A stretch of 64,000 nucleotides of DNA. Origin: a virus (lineage: Duplodnaviria > Heunggongvirae > Uroviricota > Caudoviricetes). The notes below the pieces were generated by a model that saw nothing but the letters and a program-made list of their open reading frames with translations, was not told the DNA's origin and did not search any database. Of this stretch, positions 16,965 through 38,332 are shown one piece after another. A program made the translations under genes and the position numbers. The stretch is from IMG/VR virus record IMGVR_UViG_2925891887_000001. One strand, given 5' to 3'. The number at the start of each line of letters is the position of its first letter. Position 1 is the stretch's first letter.

Positions 16965-19900
16965 ATGTGGTACAGGGAAGGTACTATCACATTTACACAG
17001 GGCAGCAATACTCTGGTTGGGGCAGGGACAGCCTGGAACGTAACAGCTAATGGTGTGTTGCCGGGGATGATCGTCATTGGCCCCGACAATAAGCTGTATG
17101 AGATCAAGCGCGTAACCAGTGATACGAACATTGTTCTCTCAGAACCTTATACCGGCGAAACTCAGTCTGAAGTTCCGTGCCGAATCATTACGACCTATGA
17201 AGGCGACTTAACACAGTTTAGCGCGCGCTTTACTGCGCTAATGTCGCGTATGTCGGCTGATTCCAAGTCCATACGCAGTTGGTTGACTGCGCTGGATGAG
17301 GTGACAATCGAGCGTGAAGACGGTACAGAAGTGACCGTTAAGCCGCTAATGCAGATCGTCAACGAGCACAACGAAAACGTTGAGTGGTATAAAAATAACA
17401 CTGACGCGATTGATGCTGCTGGCGACAAAGCTCGTGAGGCGGCGGCCAGTGCTGCCGCAGCAGCAAAAAGCGCCAATGCCGCTGGAGAAAAAGCCTCTCA
17501 AGCGTCTCAAAGTGCATCCGCTGCGGCATCCTCACAAAGTGCCGCAAGTGCGAGTGCAACTGCTGCGAAAAAATCTGAAACGAATGCTGCAGCGTCACAA
17601 AAATCTGCAGCCACTTCTGCATCCACCGCGACCACGAAGGCGTCAGAAGCTGCCACCTCAGCCCGGGATGCGGCGGCCTCAAAAGAGGCAGCGAAATCAT
17701 CAGAAACGAGCGCAGCCTCGAGCGCCAGTAATGCCGCTTCCTCGGCAACGGCGGCAGGAAATTCCGCGAAGGCGGCAAAAACGTCCGAGACGAACGCCAG
17801 GTCTTCTGAAACGGCAGCGGGACAGAGCGCCTCGGCTGCGGCAGGCTCAAAAACAGCGGCTGCGTCGTCTGCCAGTGCCGCGTCAACAAGTGCCGGGCAG
17901 GCCTCAGCCAGTGCCACCGCCGCCGGAAAATCGGCAGAAAGTGCCGCATCGTCTGCTTCAACTGCCACAACGAAGGCTGGCCAAGCCACTGAACAGGCCA
18001 GCGCAGCAGCGAGGTCTGCTTCCGCAGCGAAGACATCCGAAACGAACGCGAAAGCGTCGGAAACCCGTGCAGAATCCTCAAAAACGGCAGCCGCATCGTC
18101 CGCCAGTTCGGCGGCGTCATCGGCATCATCGGCGTCTGCTTCAAAAGATGAGGCGACCAGACAGGCGTCAGCAGCGAAGGGCAGCGCCACGACGGCATCC
18201 ACGAAAGCAACAGAGGCGGCAGGCAGTGCGACGGCAGCATCTCAGAGCAAAACTGCTGCTGAATCCGCTGCGACCCGTGCGGAAGCTGCTGCTGATCGTG
18301 CTGAAGAGATTGCCGGTGCAGTTGCGATGGAAGACGCAAGCCTTACAACTAAAGGTGTTGTGAAACTTAGCAGTGCTGTCGACAGCACCAGTGAATCGCT
18401 GGCCGCAACGCCAAAAGCAGTTAAAGCAGCCAATGACAATGCGAATAGCAGGGTGCCATCTAACCGAAAAGTTAACGGTAAAGCACTGACTGCGGATATC
18501 AAATTAACGCCGAAAGATATTGGTACTTTAAATTCAGTAACGATGTCTTTCTCTGGCGGGGCAGGGTGGTTCAAACTGGCTACGGTTACCATGCCACAAG
18601 CGAGTTCCATCGTTTACATCGCATTGATTGGTGGCGCTGGTTACAACGTCGGCTCCCCACATCAGGCAGGCATTTCAGAACTGGTTCTACGAGCAGGCAA
18701 TGGAAACCCCAAAGGGATTACAGGTGCTTTGTGGAAGCGTACAGCTGTCGGATTAACGAATTTCGCCTGGATCAACACATCCGGCGATACATATGATATT
18801 TACGTTGAGATTGGCAATTATGCGACTCGTGTAAATATCCATTGGGATTGTACTGCAAATGCGACAGTTTCTATTTATACCTCGCCAACATATTCAGCGA
18901 GTAAGCCTTCCAGCGTTACCGATGGTGTTGTTTATACGATGTATAGCACACATCAGAAACCGACGCCGTTAGATATTGGAGCACTGCCAACAACCGGAGG
19001 AACAGTTTCAGGTCCGTTGTCTGTTACAGGTGGATTAACTGGTTCATTGAATGGTAATGCAAGTACAGCCACGAAATTGCAGACGGCAAGATCTATCGGT
19101 GGAGTTGTTTTCGACGGTTCTGCAAATATTAACCTTCCAGGTGTAAACACTACGGGTAATCAGAACACCACTGGTAATGCTGCAACTGCTACAAAACTTC
19201 AGACTGCAAGAAAAATATCCGGTGTTCCATTTGATGGTTCTACTGATATCACTTTAACCGCTGCGCATGTTGCCGCTTTCGCAAGAAGGGCAACAGGGTC
19301 ATATGCGGATGCTGATGGTGGCGTGCCGTGGAATGCTGAATCTGGTGCTTACAATGTAACTAGAACAGGCGACACCTATATTCTTGCCAACTTTTATACC
19401 GGTGTAGGTAGTTGCCGGACCCTGCAGATGAAGGCGCATTACAGAAATGGAGGTCTGTTCTACCGTTCCTCAAGAGATGGCTATGGTTTTGAAAGTGGTT
19501 GGGAGCAGGTTTACACGACTGGATTTATGCCTCAGCCGGCTGATATAAACGCGCCAACCGCTGCCGCTGGATGGTTAAATAGTGGTAACGGAACGGCATT
19601 TACGACTGCTCAATTTATAACTTGGCTAAATAATCAGGGGGCATTTACAAACAAACATTGGATCGCACGGTGCTCATGGACTTACGCCAACAATAATTAT
19701 ATAGACGACACTGGTTGCGGTAGGATCGATCTATCTGGTTCCGTGATTGAGGTGTTTAGTAATAAGGCAACAAGCCACTACACTATTCGTGTTACAACGA
19801 CAACAACATCGGGTCATGGTGGTGTTAACAATGCGGAATTTATTTATGTGTACAATGGAAGTGATTATGCACCAGGCTGGCGTCGTTCTTATAACACTAG

Positions 19901-21263
19901 AAACAAACCAACAGCTTCTGATGTAGGAGCATTACCGCTTTCAGGTGGCACATTATCTGGAGGGTTAACATCTTCTGGTGAGATCATTTCAAAATATGCA
20001 AATGGTTTCCGCATTGCTTACGGTAAGTTTGGGTTCTTTATCCGTAATGATGGGGTGAACACATATTTCCTGCTAACAGCATCAGGAGACACATTAGGTT
20101 CATGGAACGGTTTGCGACCTATTACAATTAATAATACCAGCGGTGCTGTATCAATTGGTAATGGACTAAATGTGACTGGTGGCGTAAATGGTAGTTTGAA
20201 CGGTAATGCTTCAACAGCTACGAAGTTGCAAACAGCGAGAAACATCAATGGTGTTAAGTTTGATGGTTCAGGCGATATCAATATTAATACATTGGTATCT
20301 CGTGGCCGAGTTACGGCGTTAAGCGGCTCTACTCAAGGCACTGCTGGCATTCAAATGTATGAGGCGTACAACAATAGCTACCCGACCACGTATGGCAACG
20401 TATTGCACATGAAAGGTGCGAGTGCTGCTGGTGAGGGCGAGTTGCTTATTGGCTGGAGTGGTACGAGCGGTGCACATGCGCCAGTTTTCATTCGCTCACG
20501 AAGAGATAACACAGGTGCAGCATGGTCAGCGTGGGCGCAGGTATATACCGCTAAGGATTCAATCCCTGGTGTGAATACAACTGGTAATCAGAACACTACT
20601 GGTAATGCCGCAACCGCCACAAAATTGCAGACAGCAAGGAAAATTGCTGGTGTGGCGTTTGATGGCTCTGCCGATATAACTTTGACTGCGGCTAACCTTA
20701 ATGCTTACACGAAAACAGAGGTAGCAAACCTTCTAAGTTCCTATGCAAGCAGATCATCACTGACAGGCTATAGTGGCAACCTGGATATTGTTGCTGAAAC
20801 ACTGGTTGTCAAATCAGGCGGTAGTGGAGGGTTTGCTATATGGGATATTGGCACAACTACTAGCGGTGCCAATATGTACATTGATCCAAACCCAGGTATC
20901 AATACAGTTTGGCGTTCAACGTCTTCAAGGCGCTATAAAAAGGATATTGAAACATTACAAGATCGATATGCTGATGAACTTTTGTCATTAAGACCTGTTT
21001 GGTATCGTTCAATTTGTCGAGGTGACCGAAAGGATTGGGGGTATTACGGCCTTATTGCTGAAGAGGTTGGTGAGATTGCCCCGCAATATGTCCATTGGCG
21101 TGAACCAACAAATAATGATTCTCCAGAAGATATTTCCTCAAATGGTATGGTCGCTGAAGGAGTGATGTATGAGCGTTTGGTTGTACCACTCATTTATCAT
21201 ATTCAGCAATTGACCAAAAGGGTTGAGGAGCTTGAAACGAAGTTAAATTCACCTAAAGAATAA
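16965..21263 (+). CDS. tail fibre protein with Ala/Ser-rich low-complexity region, four phage-fibre repeat modules and C-terminal S74-type intramolecular chaperone domain
   Basis: AAGGAG RBS; repeated ATKLQTAR.I.GV.FDGS.DI.L modules; C-terminal segment containing SRRYKKDIE typical of the auto-cleaving chaperone domain. Confidence 0.85.
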   Translation: MWYREGTITFTQGSNTLVGAGTAWNVTANGVLPGMIVIGPDNKLYEIKRVTSDTNIVLSEPYTGETQSEVPCRIITTYEGDLTQFSARFTALMSRMSADSKSIRSWLTALDEVTIEREDGTEVTVKPLMQIVNEHNENVEWYKNNTDAIDAAGDKAREAAASAAAAAKSANAAGEKASQASQSASAAASSQSAASASATAAKKSETNAAASQKSAATSASTATTKASEAATSARDAAASKEAAKSSETSAASSASNAASSATAAGNSAKAAKTSETNARSSETAAGQSASAAAGSKTAAASSASAASTSAGQASASATAAGKSAESAASSASTATTKAGQATEQASAAARSASAAKTSETNAKASETRAESSKTAAASSASSAASSASSASASKDEATRQASAAKGSATTASTKATEAAGSATAASQSKTAAESAATRAEAAADRAEEIAGAVAMEDASLTTKGVVKLSSAVDSTSESLAATPKAVKAANDNANSRVPSNRKVNGKALTADIKLTPKDIGTLNSVTMSFSGGAGWFKLATVTMPQASSIVYIALIGGAGYNVGSPHQAGISELVLRAGNGNPKGITGALWKRTAVGLTNFAWINTSGDTYDIYVEIGNYATRVNIHWDCTANATVSIYTSPTYSASKPSSVTDGVVYTMYSTHQKPTPLDIGALPTTGGTVSGPLSVTGGLTGSLNGNASTATKLQTARSIGGVVFDGSANINLPGVNTTGNQNTTGNAATATKLQTARKISGVPFDGSTDITLTAAHVAAFARRATGSYADADGGVPWNAESGAYNVTRTGDTYILANFYTGVGSCRTLQMKAHYRNGGLFYRSSRDGYGFESGWEQVYTTGFMPQPADINAPTAAAGWLNSGNGTAFTTAQFITWLNNQGAFTNKHWIARCSWTYANNNYIDDTGCGRIDLSGSVIEVFSNKATSHYTIRVTTTTTSGHGGVNNAEFIYVYNGSDYAPGWRRSYNTRNKPTASDVGALPLSGGTLSGGLTSSGEIISKYANGFRIAYGKFGFFIRNDGVNTYFLLTASGDTLGSWNGLRPITINNTSGAVSIGNGLNVTGGVNGSLNGNASTATKLQTARNINGVKFDGSGDININTLVSRGRVTALSGSTQGTAGIQMYEAYNNSYPTTYGNVLHMKGASAAGEGELLIGWSGTSGAHAPVFIRSRRDNTGAAWSAWAQVYTAKDSIPGVNTTGNQNTTGNAATATKLQTARKIAGVAFDGSADITLTAANLNAYTKTEVANLLSSYASRSSLTGYSGNLDIVAETLVVKSGGSGGFAIWDIGTTTSGANMYIDPNPGINTVWRSTSSRRYKKDIETLQDRYADELLSLRPVWYRSICRGDRKDWGYYGLIAEEVGEIAPQYVHWREPTNNDSPEDISSNGMVAEGVMYERLVVPLIYHIQQLTKRVEELETKLNSPKE

Positions 21264-21323: not shown

Positions 21324-21578
21324 ATGAGCTATGGTGCACAGGTTTGGTCGCCATCAAGACAGGAGATGGTCAATGCGTTGGCCCCTGTTTATTACCTCGA
21401 TTATTTTACTCCCTCTGGTTCAGGAAGTAGAACATATGAGGTTGAGGCGGGATTGGGAATCGACTATTACATAATGGACGTAACCAATGGAAAGTACACA
21501 AGTCTTACGGTTTCTGGAAATACCATTTCGTGGTCTGGAGCTAGTGGTAATTTAAACATATTGGTTTTTCAAAAATAA
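21324..21578 (+). CDS. hypothetical protein (tail fibre-associated)
   Basis: 84-aa ORF after the tail fibre gene; lower GC than flanking genes. Confidence 0.5.
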   Translation: MSYGAQVWSPSRQEMVNALAPVYYLDYFTPSGSGSRTYEVEAGLGIDYYIMDVTNGKYTSLTVSGNTISWSGASGNLNILVFQK

Positions 21579-22186
21579 TGTACGGAAGCAAGATATATCG
21601 ATCTGACGGGAAGGTCTGGATGTCTCCTTCTTTGTCTCCTATCGTTTTTCAGAGAAAGCAGGTTGTTTCTTTGTCCGGCGGGACAGAGTTTAACACCAAA
21701 ATATCTCCAGATCGTTCACCGATTATTTTTGTTGCCTATTCGAAAGCTGTTTCATTAATAGCCAACAGAATAGTGCGTAACAACCAGGTGATTTACAGTT
21801 TCGGAGGTCAGGGTAGCGACTCTAGTGCCACGATATACGTATTTTCGAAAGGTATAGCCAAAAAAGAAACTTGGGGCATGAGTTTTTTCAATGCACAAGG
21901 GGAGGAAATCTATAATACGGCAAATATCCCACTTTCATTTACCTTTCTTAATAATACGGAGTGGAACAGCTCTGGAGGGCATGTTTTTGATTACCCTCCA
22001 GCGATAATCCCAACATATGCGAATGTGTTCGCTGTTCCAGTACCGGGCGGAGCCATGACAATGGTTTATGGATATGCGGCATATGGAAATACTGTTAGCT
22101 CGATATTCGTAAACCAACTTAATGGCGGCCATAGTTTTAGCGTAAATGGCAGAGTACCGGTAATAAATAGAAATCTGTATAACTGA
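21578..22186 (+). CDS. hypothetical protein (tail fibre-associated)
   Basis: 202-aa ORF with start/stop overlap to the upstream gene. Confidence 0.5.
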   Translation: MYGSKIYRSDGKVWMSPSLSPIVFQRKQVVSLSGGTEFNTKISPDRSPIIFVAYSKAVSLIANRIVRNNQVIYSFGGQGSDSSATIYVFSKGIAKKETWGMSFFNAQGEEIYNTANIPLSFTFLNNTEWNSSGGHVFDYPPAIIPTYANVFAVPVPGGAMTMVYGYAAYGNTVSSIFVNQLNGGHSFSVNGRVPVINRNLYN

Positions 22187-22193
22187 TGAGTAG

Positions 22194-22427
22194 ATGATGA
22201 AAAGATTATTTCTAACAATAGCTGTTGTTCTCTCTCTTACTGGCTGCCAGAAATTGCCGACACCTATATGTTACGGTGAGGCTATCATTGGTGGACAGGA
22301 GACAGTCATACCCATATATGCTGTTAAAAAAGTGAACGACTATACCTTATACAAAGCGGGTAGCATCTATAACTGGCGATGGGTAGGAGTAGGTGCTTTC
22401 TCATCAGTCCGTTGCAATGCTGAATGA
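22194..22427 (+). CDS. small lipoprotein, candidate Cor-like superinfection exclusion protein
   Basis: Signal peptide with lipobox LTGC; 77 aa; located between tail fibre genes and the lysis cassette. Confidence 0.45.
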   Translation: MMKRLFLTIAVVLSLTGCQKLPTPICYGEAIIGGQETVIPIYAVKKVNDYTLYKAGSIYNWRWVGVGAFSSVRCNAE

Positions 22428-22508
22428 TAGGTAAGTACACACCTACAACAAAAGGGTGAAATGTGATATAAATCCGCCATCCCGATTTGACTTTTCATGG
22501 AGGAAAAC

Positions 22509-22832
22509 ATGTCGAACGAGATGGCGGGCGTTACAACAGAGCAAGTTGAGCGTATTGCCGCGATCGTTGCTCGGGAGGTTGTTGGCAAATTAGGTAAAGA
22601 GCTACGTGAAGAAATTGGCCAGGAGGTCAACGATCAGCTGAAAACCTACTTTGGTGATATGACCCCGGCGCAACATAGTATTCAACACTCCAACCTGGAC
22701 AAACTCCTTAACCGGTTAGATTCCATCTCAAGTGGGTTCTTTGGCGGCATTGTTTCTAAAATAACGTCGTTCATTATTACCGCACTGCTTTTGGGGTTAG
22801 CCGCGTATGGCGTAAAAAATGGACTGCAATAA
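22509..22832 (+). CDS. membrane protein, holin candidate
   Basis: GGAGG RBS; single C-terminal hydrophobic helix; first gene of the putative lysis cassette. Confidence 0.4.
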   Translation: MSNEMAGVTTEQVERIAAIVAREVVGKLGKELREEIGQEVNDQLKTYFGDMTPAQHSIQHSNLDKLLNRLDSISSGFFGGIVSKITSFIITALLLGLAAYGVKNGLQ

Positions 22833-22845
22833 CAGGAGATCAAGG

Positions 22846-23538
22846 ATGAAGACTCCGAGAGGTATTCGTAATAATAACCCCGGTAATCTTGATAAAGGAT
22901 CACCGTGGCAAGGTCTGGTTGCGAATCCAGACGAACCGCGCTTTTGCACGTTTAAAGACCCTGTTTGGGGGATTCGTGCACTGGCGGTGACTCTAATTAC
23001 CTACCACGACAAGCGTCGCGCAAAAGACGGCTCAAGTATCGATACCATTCGTGAAGTTATTGAACGTTGGGCACCGCCGAATGAAAACAACACTGACGCC
23101 TACATTAATGAGGTGTCTAAAGCCGTTGGTGTAACCGCAGACATGATTATCGATCTGCATGATTACGACATTCTTCGACCTTTGGTTGAGGCAATCATTC
23201 GCCATGAGAATGGGCGAGGTCCGCTAAAAACGCTGAACACCTGGTATGCGGCAGAAGTTATTGAGGAAGGTCTGCGTCGAGCTGGCGTCGTTAAGCCGGT
23301 GAAAACCGTGAAGGCTGTTCCTGTAACTAAAGAAACAGCAGGCGCAACTGTTACAGCAGGTATTGGTCTGGCGCAGCTGGCCGATGTTATGCCGCAGGTT
23401 TCCGCTGCTATGGATAAAGCACAAGGTCATATCTCTAGCGGGGATACAGTACGCATCATCTTCGGTATTGCCACTATTGTTGTGGCTGGATTTATCGCCT
23501 GGTCGCAGGTAAGAAGACACCAGAAAGGGATGGTCTAA
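22846..23538 (+). CDS. lysis cassette protein, candidate endolysin with C-terminal membrane anchor
   Basis: CAGGAG RBS; conserved-looking RGIRNNNPGN N-terminal motif; sits between holin candidate and spanins; C-terminal hydrophobic helix. Confidence 0.35.
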   Translation: MKTPRGIRNNNPGNLDKGSPWQGLVANPDEPRFCTFKDPVWGIRALAVTLITYHDKRRAKDGSSIDTIREVIERWAPPNENNTDAYINEVSKAVGVTADMIIDLHDYDILRPLVEAIIRHENGRGPLKTLNTWYAAEVIEEGLRRAGVVKPVKTVKAVPVTKETAGATVTAGIGLAQLADVMPQVSAAMDKAQGHISSGDTVRIIFGIATIVVAGFIAWSQVRRHQKGMV

Positions 23539-23539
23539 T

Positions 23540-23791
23540 ATGCTAGGCAGCCTGATGACAAAGCTAAAAGTTGCTTTGATTACGCTGGCTGCCGTTCTTT
23601 TCGTTCTGGTCGGCGCTTACACGATGGGCGGAAATGCGGCGCGACGAGCAATGGAAGAGAAGGCAAAACAGGAAGACAGAAAACGACTTCAAAGCACAGT
23701 GGATGTCAAAAATGAAACGGTTAATGAAGTGCGGCAAAAAGATGCCTCTGGTGTTCATCGCGAGCTGTTTGATAAATGGGTGCGTGATTAA
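23540..23791 (+). CDS. i-spanin (Rz-like)
   Basis: N-terminal transmembrane anchor followed by a charged helical periplasmic region; an o-spanin candidate is embedded in the +1 frame. Confidence 0.6.
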   Translation: MLGSLMTKLKVALITLAAVLFVLVGAYTMGGNAARRAMEEKAKQEDRKRLQSTVDVKNETVNEVRQKDASGVHRELFDKWVRD

Positions 23792-23939
23792 GACGCAGGC
23801 TCCAGGCGTGCTATTCTGCGATGCTGCAAATCCTATCTATGTGAGTAGAGAGGATTTTATGACTGAGGAAACGGAGCGACAGTTGCTTATCCACAATACG
23901 ATAGGTGAAAGGCTGTGTGAGTGGGGGCACCTGAACTGA
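23703..23939 (+). CDS. o-spanin (Rz1-like lipoprotein), partly nested in the i-spanin gene
   Basis: Short signal peptide with lipobox (FIASC) in an ORF that begins inside the i-spanin gene in another frame; start uncertain (ATG 23703 or 23712). Confidence 0.5.
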   Translation: MSKMKRLMKCGKKMPLVFIASCLINGCVIKTQAPGVLFCDAANPIYVSREDFMTEETERQLLIHNTIGERLCEWGHLN

Positions 23940-24163
23940 GTCGATGATTGATGAGTGGTCTCAGTTTACCTTTTATCCTAAAGATGGCATCTTCACTCAT
24001 ATACACGCCTGTTCACTCAAGCTCATGTTGAATCATTTAGTAATTTGATGTAGATTTATTAGGCATCCACGTAAGTGGGCACATACAGGCTACGCATCCT
24101 CGTAGCCTTCAACCCCGAGAGGGGTGCCGCAATGACACTTGTGTTAACGGCTAAGGTGGATAT

Positions 24164-24583
24164 ATGCTAAATTATCATGACAATACGCGTTCTATGCAGA
24201 CGATCCGCACCAATACTGCGGTCATCGACAGCTTTCCTATGCGTATTCACAACAGTGAAGACGCAGTAGAAGTGCGACGTATGTTGTGCCGTGAATCAGC
24301 TAACCGCCAGCACTTCATCGTCACTTTTAAGAGCGATGTGGCGCGTGCCGAAAAGATCTCTAATTCTACGTCACTGGTTAAACCGTTGGCCGAGGTTGTC
24401 GCTAACGGTAAACGAACCTCTTTTGTTTTAGATGTTGCTGAACAATATCCTGACTTGAAGTGTTTAGATCGTGATATTTCTTCACGAATCAAACAAGTTG
24501 TAGAGTCTTTTATGAAGAAATTCTGTAAAATCGATGATATGGAACCATCAACGGCACAGAATACTTCATGGCACCATCTCTAA
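24164..24583 (+). CDS. hypothetical protein
   Basis: 139-aa ORF, first gene after a 220-bp non-coding gap following the lysis genes. Confidence 0.5.
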   Translation: MLNYHDNTRSMQTIRTNTAVIDSFPMRIHNSEDAVEVRRMLCRESANRQHFIVTFKSDVARAEKISNSTSLVKPLAEVVANGKRTSFVLDVAEQYPDLKCLDRDISSRIKQVVESFMKKFCKIDDMEPSTAQNTSWHHL

Positions 24584-38085: not shown

Positions 38086-38160
38086 GATGGTGTAGCTCAG
38101 CGGTAGAGCAGTTGGCTGTTAACCAACTGGTCGGTGGTTCGAATCCACCCACCATCGCCA
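38086..38160 (+). tRNA. tRNA-Asn (anticodon GTT)
   Basis: Cloverleaf read by eye: acceptor GATGGTG/CACCATC, anticodon loop CTGTTAA, T-loop GGTTCGAATCC, encoded CCA. Confidence 0.8.
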
Positions 38161-38165
38161 ATTTA

Positions 38166-38252
38166 GGGGAGTTAGTCCGTAGAGGTAGCGGTGTAGACTG
38201 TAAATCTACTGTCATGGCGACTCGGGTGGTTCGACTCCATCACTCCCCACCA
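38166..38252 (+). tRNA. tRNA-Tyr (anticodon GTA), long variable arm
   Basis: Acceptor GGGGAGT/ACTCCCC, anticodon loop CTGTAAA, T-loop GGTTCGACTCC, encoded CCA. Confidence 0.75.
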
Positions 38253-38256
38253 AATT

Positions 38257-38332
38257 GCCGGTTTAGCTCAGTTGGTAGAGCAGTCGCTTTGTAAGCGAAT
38301 GGCCAGCGGTTCAAGTCCGTTAACCGGCACCA
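38257..38332 (+). tRNA. tRNA-Thr (anticodon TGT)
   Basis: Acceptor GCCGGTT/AACCGGC, D-arm AGCTCAGTTGGTAGAGC, anticodon loop TTTGTAA, T-loop GGTTCAAGTCC, encoded CCA. Confidence 0.75.

Follow-up and report, generated by a model that had tools for sequence, protein, structure and literature searches.

The segment 22509..23939 of the window (the whole stretch of viral DNA analysed, 64,000 nucleotides) is very probably a late lysis cassette from an SSU5-like phage-plasmid of E. coli, built of four co-oriented, tightly packed genes. In order, these encode a 107-aa membrane protein in the holin position, an endolysin of the Enc34/M4Lys type anchored by its C-terminus, a short i-spanin and a lipoprotein o-spanin. 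The cassette is an ordinary SSU5-type set that was already known. Little is added to what has been published on the endolysin family, the C-terminal anchor and the overlapped spanins, and the records of phages SSU5 and Cyrano already annotate the same cassette. The least settled part is the assignment of the holin, whose gene starts within a conserved RNA hairpin.

Composition and conservation of the cassette

The earlier note had read this region as a lysis cassette, and the ORFs of 107, 230 and 83 aa, together with an out-of-frame ORF open to 23939, bear this out; the four real ORFs form a four-gene lysis cassette. Over the cassette, the window matches E. coli plasmid NZ_CP107145.1 at 100% identity; phage Cyrano reaches 94% there, and phage SSU5 83%. 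The cassette is present in 784 plasmid records. The SSU5 and Cyrano cassettes, annotated as holin, endolysin, Rz and Rz1, are orthologous, with four genes in the same order and of the same lengths as in the window. Amino acid identities to SSU5 and Cyrano are, respectively, 96 and 100% for the holin-position gene, 94 and 99% for the endolysin, 82 and 89% for the i-spanin, and 74 and 63% for the o-spanin. Three small membrane or lipoprotein genes (one of them Cor-like), which lie between the tail fibre and the cassette in the window, are absent from Cyrano.

A scan of 22100-24300 detected neither a sigma-70-like promoter nor an intrinsic terminator, which is consistent with a single transcription unit. 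The Rfam scan of the whole window returned three tRNAs only and no match in the cassette. Pfam and NCBIfam scans of all four cassette proteins gave no significant family, because those libraries do not hold these families, which are present in PHROGs and the PDB.

The endolysin

The second gene (22846..23538, + strand) encodes a 230-aa protein whose sequence places it clearly in the Enc34/M4Lys (PHA02564) family of endolysins. It matches the Enc34 endolysin's catalytic domain, PDB 7Q47, over residues 3-151 (phmmer, E=2.6e-54, 59% identity) and the PHROG family phrog_873, 'endolysin' (E=4.9e-88). The AF2 model is all-helical, with pLDDT of about 90 over residues 40-150, and its top Foldseek match is again 7Q47 (E=1.8e-16, TM 0.81 on the target, 59% identity); the modelled fold resembles the alpha-lobe of lysozyme. 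The putative catalytic residue E121, as well as W75 and Y86, is invariant in alignments of 6 and 33 sequences. The HMM and structure searches that the earlier note proposed for this gene both point to an endolysin, in agreement with its place between the holin-position gene and the spanins. The statement that no lysozyme or amidase signature can be recognised holds for Pfam and NCBIfam, whose models do not match, but not for the PDB and PHROGs, which identify the family. Nor is the protein the unusual candidate it was taken for, since the structure of the family has been solved and the activity of its members measured.

The PHA02564 catalytic domain occupies residues ~1-150. It begins with the RGIRNNNPGN stretch (residues 5-14), which had been singled out as conserved-looking; G6, N11, P12, G13 and N14 are indeed invariant across 33 homologues of 55-89% identity, and RGIRNNNPGN is the invariant N-terminal motif of the Enc34/M4Lys endolysin family. 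The domain is followed by a Pro/Lys/Val linker, a weakly hydrophobic amphipathic segment (residues ~165-192), a transmembrane domain (TMD) at residues ~200-222 (nt 23443-23511), and the basic tail RRHQKGMV. The TMD is the single strong hydrophobic segment (KD19 maximum 2.07, residues 204-222), confirming the C-terminal transmembrane helix that had been described as atypical, as it is for endolysins in general. The KD19 profile has no hydrophobic window at the N-terminus. The protein lacks the weakly hydrophobic N-terminal TMD by which SAR (signal-anchor-release) endolysins are exported and tethered: its N-terminus is hydrophilic (MKTPRGIRNNNPGN) and its sole TMD is C-terminal.

The closest structural relative is ORF39 of Enc34, a Hafnia phage and Chi-like siphovirus, which is an endolysin with muralytic activity and a known crystal structure (PDB 7Q47; Cernooka et al. 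2022, PMC8943055). It shares with the window protein the helical fold, the Glu/Trp/Tyr trio (catalytic Glu131, with roles for Trp79 and Tyr95; PMC8943055), the RGIRNNNPGN motif and the C-terminal TMD with a basic tail. Its gene likewise lies between a holin and overlapped spanins, although the holin-position genes of Enc34 and of the SSU5-like phage-plasmid in the window are unrelated. The Enc34 endolysin is described with a two-helix TMD, whereas only one segment exceeds the hydrophobicity threshold in the window protein.

The best functional model, by analogy, is M4Lys of Salmonella phage BSPM4, which has N-acetylglucosaminidase activity (Bai et al. 2020, PMC7143992). M4Lys has the same layout, with a catalytic domain and a C-terminal TMD that are kept in Chi-like homologues; the window endolysin is ~55% identical to the endolysins of Chi-like phages, themselves 97-99% identical to M4Lys. 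Lysis by M4Lys depends on the TMD and is independent of holin and Sec, the holin-independent lysis having been seen under strong over-expression only (PMC7143992). From Enc34 ORF39 and M4Lys, which are 55-59% identical to it, the 230-aa protein is predicted to have muralytic activity.

A similar size and layout are found in LysAP of Acidovorax phage AP1 (227 aa, N-terminal muralytic domain, C-terminal TMD 194-216), which was described as a 'C-terminal SAR endolysin' (Zhang et al. 2022, PMC8879335). Its TMD is also needed for lysis, but unlike M4Lys its release was reported to be Sec-dependent (PMC8879335). However, the catalytic domain of LysAP is a GH24 lysozyme, and no part of the protein has significant sequence similarity to the window endolysin. 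Domains of the PHA02564 type also occur in T7-like internal virion protein D and in tape-measure and head proteins. Some records name an endolysin homologue 'structural protein P5' or 'virion protein'.

The spanin genes

The third gene (23540..23791, + strand), which starts 1 nt past the endolysin stop, encodes an i-spanin of 83 aa that matches phrog_1026, 'Rz-like spanin', over its full length (E=5.7e-25). It has an N-terminal TMD (residues 9-29, nt 23564-23626; KD19 2.38) and a charged periplasmic domain of 54 residues without Cys, ending in DKWVRD. The protein is conserved at 55-89% in eight relatives. Both its short length and its C-terminal W-x-R-D ending are common to the i-spanins of Chi-like phages. 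The very short SSU5-type i-spanin (83 aa) was a singleton in sequence clustering (Kongari et al. 2018, PMC6139136).

The fourth gene (23712..23939, + strand) encodes a 75-aa lipoprotein precursor, the o-spanin, which matches phrog_1275, 'Rz-like spanin' (E=1.1e-25). It comprises a signal peptide (MKRLMKCGKKMPLVFIASCLING), the lipobox LINGC (nt 23769-23783) with a predicted lipidated Cys24, and a mature part of 52 aa with two more conserved Cys residues (C36 and C69). The residue at +2 is Val and not Asp, in agreement with sorting to the outer membrane. The lipobox Cys is the second Cys of the precursor (codon 23781-23783) and is conserved in 12 loci as (I/V/L/T)(S/N/I/T/V)GC; the first, Cys19 (IASC), was rejected, being Phe in three relatives. 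The ORF is intact in nine SSU5-like relatives and three Chi-like phages, the latter at 38-46% identity. The start had been placed at about 23703, which requires correction: this codon is Thr in two relatives, three (L003, L005 and L007) have an in-frame stop after it, and in L002 and L008 the frame opens only at the Met equivalent to 23712. The Met at 23712 is the only o-spanin start conserved in all nine loci, and comparison of the loci makes ATG 23712 the likely start.

The two spanin genes share 80 nt (23712-23791), covering only the signal peptide and the first three mature residues of the o-spanin, which then runs 148 nt beyond the i-spanin stop. The Met, the lipobox Cys and the 80-nt overlap are conserved in 9/9 SSU5-like loci, where the o-spanin extends 136-163 nt past the i-spanin stop. 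The spanin pair is of the overlapped P2/Chi type: P2 LysB/LysC and the Chi-family spanins are two-component pairs arranged in the same way, whereas lambda Rz/Rz1 are embedded. The overlapped class is defined by an o-spanin gene that begins within the i-spanin gene and continues past its stop; the SSU5 o-spanin has been listed in the Chi family, and the SSU5 spanins in this class (Kongari et al. 2018, PMC6139136). The Enc34 spanins were described as overlapped, as in P2 (PMC8943055).

The earlier note had described the spanins as nested in the lambda manner. A real pair in two frames is present, and the start codon and signal peptide of the o-spanin do lie within the i-spanin gene, but the arrangement is not an embedded one, given stops at 23939 and 23791, a geometry alike in nine relatives, and the published definition, by which SSU5 and Enc34 are classed as overlapped. 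It is just as hard to credit that the out-of-frame ORF arose by chance and that something else performs the outer-membrane step. PGAP does not call the o-spanin in the identical plasmid, and annotated starts differ (SSU5 has two alternative CDSs, Cyrano a GTG after the i-spanin stop). Such under-calling of overlapped o-spanins is, however, a documented annotation bias (Kongari et al. 2018, PMC6139136). The phrog_1275 match, the retention of the Met, lipobox and two further Cys in 12 loci including Chi-like phages, and a dN/dS of 0.04-0.12 for the mature part in the o-spanin frame, which indicates purifying selection, all speak for a real gene. As for the endolysin, its catalytic domain also heads large virion/core proteins (9vvp, Gp29 of phage E1004, E=5.5e-22), and this, like the virion-type titles of homologue records, would suit a peptidoglycan hydrolase associated with the virion and acting at the ejection stage. 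We consider this very unlikely, since the 230-aa protein is free-standing and has a membrane anchor, every relative has its gene flanked by the holin-position gene and the spanins, and the full-length homologues Enc34 ORF39 and M4Lys act as lysis proteins. Nor is a true endolysin, which the earlier note had considered might lie elsewhere, annotated on the identical 112-kb element, where the one further muralytic gene annotated is that of a C40 family peptidase; encoded among tail genes, this peptidase is probably a tail component.

The holin-position gene

The first gene (22509..22832, + strand, 107 aa) belongs to phrog_5093, a family of 'unknown function' (E=8e-69). Its ATG at 22509 is preceded by GGAGG at a distance of 5 nt, and 13 nt separate the gene from the endolysin downstream. 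In every relative this gene takes the holin position; the SSU5 record labels it 'putative holin' and the Cyrano record 'Holin'. The one TMD of the protein lies at the very C-terminal end (residues ~81-101, nt 22749-22811) and is followed by a tail of six residues, VKNGLQ, which is not the charged C-terminal tail typical of holins. The N-terminal ~75 aa are acidic and helical (positions 1-75 have 12 acidic and 8 basic residues) and carry a conserved FGDMTPxQHxIQH motif. The AF2 model (14 homologues) was uninformative, with pLDDT 47.6.

Among named holin families of Pfam, NCBIfam and PHROG ('holin'), none was matched by the 107-aa protein or by ten distant relatives, and word-index and full HMMER profile searches with the family returned 'hypothetical protein' and phrog_5093 only. 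No similarity was found to the holins of Chi and Enc34 or to AP1 HolAP, which is unrelated. In the Chi-like phage KFS-SE1, close to BSPM4, the equivalent gene encodes an N-proximal TMD and a C-terminal soluble domain, of which the window protein is a mirror layout without detectable similarity.

The phrog_5093-type family comprises about 60 representative clusters. Its distant members adjoin either Peptidase_M15_3 endolysins or a holin together with a phrog_669 endolysin. In two distant cassettes (L025 and L026), the phrog_5093 gene immediately precedes that of a soluble-type M15 endolysin of 169-171 aa, and no other PHROG holin was recognised among the scanned neighbours of these family members. 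In a third one (L023), a distinct PHROG 'holin' stands between it and the endolysin.

These observations leave the 107-aa protein most likely a holin or lysis timer. A less probable reading makes it an accessory or regulator, such as an antiholin or an XhlA-like partner, with the membrane lesion made by the endolysin's own C-terminal TMD. The protein has a large N-terminal cytoplasmic domain with a C-terminal anchor, unlike class I-III holins, and it matches no holin family. The separate 'holin' behind the phrog_5093 member of L023 also fits this reading. The topology of the 107-aa protein presumably recalls that of XhlA of PBSX, which precedes the holin XhlB; however, no Pfam XhlA match to the protein was found at E<=1. 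M4Lys alone lyses E. coli and requires its TMD to do so (PMC7143992), but only under strong over-expression. Furthermore, neither the window cassette nor that of any close relative encodes a small membrane protein besides the 107-aa one, and the soluble-type M15 endolysins of L025 and L026 would need a holin. If the 107-aa protein is itself the holin or timer, we tentatively suggest, as a possibility with less than even chances, that phrog_5093 may found an undescribed class that is tail-anchored, has a cytoplasmic helical domain of ~75 residues, is gated by a hairpin and serves at least three unrelated endolysin types. In that event, the phrog_5093 protein of SSU5-like elements would have as its partner an endolysin that is likewise anchored by its C-terminus, and this could hint at a common delivery or release route for C-terminal anchors.

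An RNA hairpin at the start of the first gene

An RNA stem-loop (22473..22528, + strand) encloses both the GGAGG Shine-Dalgarno sequence (22499-22503) and the start codon at 22509, its 3' arm being formed by codons 2-7 of the 107-aa gene. Its predicted MFE is -25.7 kcal/mol (z = -3.73), and none of 200 shuffled sequences was as stable. The same architecture is predicted in six relatives, with differing arm sequences. In a covariance-model alignment of 12 loci, itself fitted to the model structure, pairing covers 89.7% of cells, compared to 33-46% in slid controls; in this model-fitted alignment, compensatory changes affect 10 of the 22 hairpin pairs, and the observed score was reached by 0/500 shuffles. 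With a plain MAFFT alignment as input, RNAalifold returned mostly the outer stem and three apical pairs, because the divergent loops misalign. The covariance model did not find the hairpin in the most distant cassettes (L022-L026), whose individual folds have no common structure, L022 having an unrelated strong hairpin in the same place. From its position over the ribosome-binding site, we suggest that the hairpin probably throttles translation of the 107-aa gene.

Proposed course of lysis

We infer the following order of events. The tail-anchored 107-aa protein would serve as holin or lysis timer, with the hairpin enclosing the ribosome-binding site and start codon of its gene. The endolysin, tethered to the inner membrane by its C-terminal TMD, would act as a glycosidase with a fold like the lysozyme alpha-lobe and E121 as the catalytic acid, the activity seen in homologues being that of an N-acetylglucosaminidase. 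In homologues, the TMD is needed for the enzyme to reach the wall, and through it the over-expressed enzyme lyses cells without holin or Sec (PMC8943055, PMC7143992). Once the wall is cut, the i-spanin and the lipoprotein o-spanin would bridge the periplasm and destroy the outer membrane. In this scheme, family membership, catalytic residues, fold, TMDs, lipobox, overlap geometry, purifying selection and RNA covariation were computed here, and muralytic activity and TMD dependence come from experiments on homologues (proteins 55-59% identical).

Occurrence and annotation

In RefSeq, the cassette genes are named 'membrane protein' or 'hypothetical protein' and the o-spanin is left out, both in the identical plasmid and in many of the sampled related phage-plasmids of Enterobacteriaceae, which number in the hundreds. 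As a result, the cassette escapes recognition in elements that spread resistance genes. The route of the C-terminal anchor to the wall and the role of the tail-anchored 'holin' are open to study in a tractable E. coli plasmid-prophage. The anchored endolysin architecture has been described as limited to Chivirus and some related viruses (PMC8943055); the anchored endolysin of Enc34 type, found in 784 plasmid records and over 2000 protein clusters, is distributed far more widely than the Chi-like phages.

Lysis Cassette Structure and Distribution

Four genes on the plus strand form the lysis cassette, that is, a holin-position gene (22509..22832), an endolysin gene (22846..23538), an i-spanin gene (23540..23791), and an o-spanin gene (23712..23939); the ORFs listed for this region in the earlier note all exist as described. 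The ATG at 22509 is preceded by GGAGG with a 5-nt gap, the ATG at 22846 lies 13 nt past the stop codon of the first gene and is preceded by AGGAG, and the i-spanin begins 1 nt past the endolysin stop, with an ATG at 23540. Neither a sigma-70-like promoter nor an intrinsic terminator was found in 22100-24300, which, together with the tight packing, is consistent with a single transcription unit of four genes.

The cassette as a whole is already known. It is 100% identical over 1.6 kb to a region of the Escherichia coli plasmid pS2-S1K81-2 (NZ_CP107145.1; 111.9 kb, non-mobilizable), and the cassette-region identity is 94% in Escherichia phage Cyrano and 83% in Salmonella phage SSU5. A more sensitive search identified the cassette segment in 784 plasmid records from Klebsiella, Escherichia, Enterobacter, Salmonella, Citrobacter, Cronobacter, and other hosts. 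Nearly all of them are non-mobilizable and about 110 kb in size, and they are SSU5-like phage-plasmids. The orthologous genes in the SSU5 and Cyrano records are annotated as holin, endolysin, Rz, and Rz1, and the SSU5-shared genes in two genome notes on phage-like plasmids already include "a holin and an endolysin". The initial observation is real, but both points considered unusual, the endolysin and the spanin arrangement, are already explained. What novelty is left lies in the tail-anchored family at the holin position and its conserved translational hairpin.

In the segment of NZ_CP107145.1 corresponding to 22509-23791 (L012, 37715-38997), RefSeq/PGAP names the endolysin "membrane protein" and both the holin-position gene and the i-spanin "hypothetical protein", and the o-spanin is absent from the annotation. 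Similarly non-specific gene names occur on most of the related plasmid records sampled among the 784.

Endolysin

Judged from its sequence, the 230-aa product of 22846..23538 belongs to an endolysin family whose structure and biochemistry have been characterised. The earlier note had seen no lysozyme or amidase signature in it; this stands for Pfam and NCBIfam, since no model in either matches the protein, but not for other collections. In PHROGs it matches phrog_873 "endolysin" (E=4.9e-88), and in a PDB sequence search residues 3-151 match the catalytic domain of the phage Enc34 endolysin (7Q47_A, E=2.6e-54). The features that had seemed atypical are exactly those published for the Enc34 enzyme, which combines an N-terminal PHA02564-family domain without recognisable similarity to other endolysins with a C-terminal transmembrane domain (TMD), is muralytic on permeabilised E. 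coli, P. aeruginosa, and Hafnia, and has an all-helical fold like the alpha-lobe of lysozymes, with a catalytic Glu131 alongside Trp79 and Tyr95 (PMC8943055). The equivalent residues, E121, W75, and Y86, do not vary among six cassette homologues, nor among 33 homologues of 55-89% identity. In the latter set, G6, N11, P12, G13, and N14 are also invariant, bearing out the impression that the RGIRNNNPGN motif is conserved. In an AlphaFold model built on the 33-homologue alignment, the catalytic domain has a pLDDT of about 90 and the last 80 residues are helices of low confidence; the best PDB match of the model is again 7Q47 (TM 0.81, 59% identity).

The C-terminal transmembrane helix was confirmed by hydropathy at residues ~200-222, the sole segment qualifying as a TMD. 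It is preceded by a weakly hydrophobic, amphipathic Ala/Gly-rich segment and followed by a basic tail, a layout kept in Chi-like phages. M4Lys, the homologue from phage BSPM4, strips GlcNAc from muropeptides and by itself lyses E. coli in an azide-insensitive manner, and truncation of its TMD abolishes lysis (PMC7143992). The C-terminal-anchor layout is shared with LysAP of phage AP1, a GH24 enzyme termed a "C-terminal SAR endolysin" (PMC8879335), though no sequence similarity between LysAP and the window protein was found.

The alternative, a true endolysin encoded elsewhere, finds no candidate: the annotation of the identical 112-kb element names no further lysozyme, transglycosylase, or amidase. 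The single peptidoglycan-related annotation outside the cassette is a "C40 family peptidase" located among tail genes and probably a tail component. The endolysin family encoded at 22846..23538 is large, with over 2000 clusters at 90% identity; most are named "hypothetical", and a Pfam domain is present in none. Of 793 matching phage records, 182 have a match spanning at least 80% of the protein; most other matches span the N-terminal catalytic-domain region only, and these include large virion or core proteins (e.g., 9vvp Gp29) as well as annotated endolysins.

Spanins

The full length of the 83-aa i-spanin is covered by a match to phrog_1026 "Rz-like spanin" (E=5.7e-25), and the out-of-frame o-spanin product matches phrog_1275 of the same name (E=1.1e-25), in agreement with the proposed spanin pair. 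For comparison, the o-spanin frame was taken from eight SSU5-like relatives, which share 54-79% protein identity with the window, and from three Chi-like phages. The start near 23703 suggested previously is not conserved among the SSU5-like relatives: the ATG is replaced by Thr in two, it is followed by a stop in three, and two have no open frame before the next Met. The ATG at 23712 is found in 9/9 loci, the window included. The first Cys (IASC) was rejected as the lipobox Cys, being Phe in three relatives; the second is universal (LINGC in the window; ISGC, VSGC, LIGC, TTGC, or VVGC elsewhere). Given these two conserved positions, the precursor is predicted to be cleaved between MKRLMKCGKKMPLVFIASCLING and CVIK..., with Val at +2.

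The arrangement had been likened to lambda Rz/Rz1, the "embedded" class of Kongari et al. 2018 (PMC6139136). By the definitions of these authors it is instead the common and catalogued "overlapped" class: the two genes overlap by exactly 80 nt in 9/9 loci, and the o-spanin then runs 136-163 nt beyond the i-spanin stop. The part encoded within the i-spanin gene is limited to the signal peptide and three mature residues, and dN/dS of the mature part is 0.04-0.12. In the same survey, the SSU5 i-spanin is a singleton of the overlapped class and the SSU5 o-spanin belongs to the Chi family (PMC6139136), and the Enc34 spanins were described as overlapping "as in phage P2" (PMC8943055). The window i-spanin is short and lacks Cys, and its C-terminus, DKWVRD, resembles the ends of Chi-like i-spanins.

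When the spanin region of Cyrano (L002, 4115-4502) is compared with that of the window (23540-23939), the two i-spanins are identical over the first ~51 residues, whereas the Cyrano i-spanin C-terminus and o-spanin resemble those of a related plasmid (L008). The region thus looks mosaic, as if a recombination joint lay within the spanin genes. A 12-nt inverted repeat (23828-23857; 92% complementary, 6-nt loop) lies in the o-spanin coding region past the overlap.

Holin-Position Gene and Its Hairpin

The holin-position gene is the least supported part of the cassette reading. In its 107-aa product, the first ~75 residues are acidic and helical, and the only TMD lies at the extreme C-terminus. 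The Chi-like protein at this position has the mirrored layout, an N-proximal TMD followed by a soluble C-terminal domain, and the two show no detectable similarity. The sole match is phrog_5093 "unknown function". A word-index search found ~30 close clusters, all "hypothetical". Full HMMER profile searching extended this to ~60 representative clusters, whose members are 100-140 aa long, share this layout, and carry a conserved FGDMTPxQHxIQH motif ahead of the TMD; in 10 of these scanned, phrog_5093 was again the sole match, with no Pfam family. In closer relatives the gene is always upstream of an Enc34-type endolysin and the i-spanin. Among the most distant loci, it directly precedes a Peptidase_M15_3 endolysin in two contigs (L025, 3001-3333; L026, 242-574), and in a third (L023, 1081-1413) a PHROG "holin" stands between it and a downstream phrog_669 endolysin. 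These contexts tie the phrog_5093 family to lysis alongside three types of endolysin (Enc34-type, Peptidase_M15_3, and phrog_669), and it may represent a holin or a holin partner.

An RNA hairpin (22473-22528) covers the start of this gene. The inverted repeat 22474-22484/22517-22527 forms its outer stem, the Shine-Dalgarno sequence and the AUG lie in its inner stem and loop, and the 3' arm corresponds to codons 2-7. At -25.7 kcal/mol (z = -3.73) it is much more stable than shuffled sequences, and relatives with different arm sequences adopt the same predicted fold. In an alignment of 12 loci fitted to a covariance model built from eight of them, 89.7% of cells are paired versus 33-46% with partners slid, compensatory changes occur in 10/22 pairs, and the observed covariation was reached by 0/500 shuffles. 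Most likely, the hairpin limits or times translation of the first lysis gene, making it a candidate brake on holin synthesis; the sdi structure upstream of lambda S is comparable in principle. In a distant cassette (L022, 2957-3000), a different, unrelated strong hairpin with a 13-bp stem, including AGGUG, lies immediately 5' of the start of the phrog_5093 gene, where it may have arisen independently as an analogous control element.

Other Genes of the Element

Three small genes between the tail fibre and the cassette (21324-22427), present in SSU5 and absent from Cyrano, encode products that match phrog_557 "outer membrane protein" (84 aa), phrog_425 "membrane associated protein" (202 aa), and a Cor-like superinfection-exclusion lipoprotein (77 aa; phrog_1119, E=2e-30). 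The 1432-aa tail fibre (16965-21263) has a long Ala/Ser/Thr-rich low-complexity stretch, and at its C-terminus it resembles an intramolecular-chaperone (Peptidase_S74) module that was identified in the fibre of a relative (L020). Three adjacent tRNA genes are located on the plus strand at 38086-38329 (Rfam RF00005; 75.5, 41.6, and 69 bits). Beyond the window, NZ_CP107145.1 carries chromosomal-type metG (methionine-tRNA ligase) and apbC among phage genes at 80991-84282 (L014, 18991-22282).
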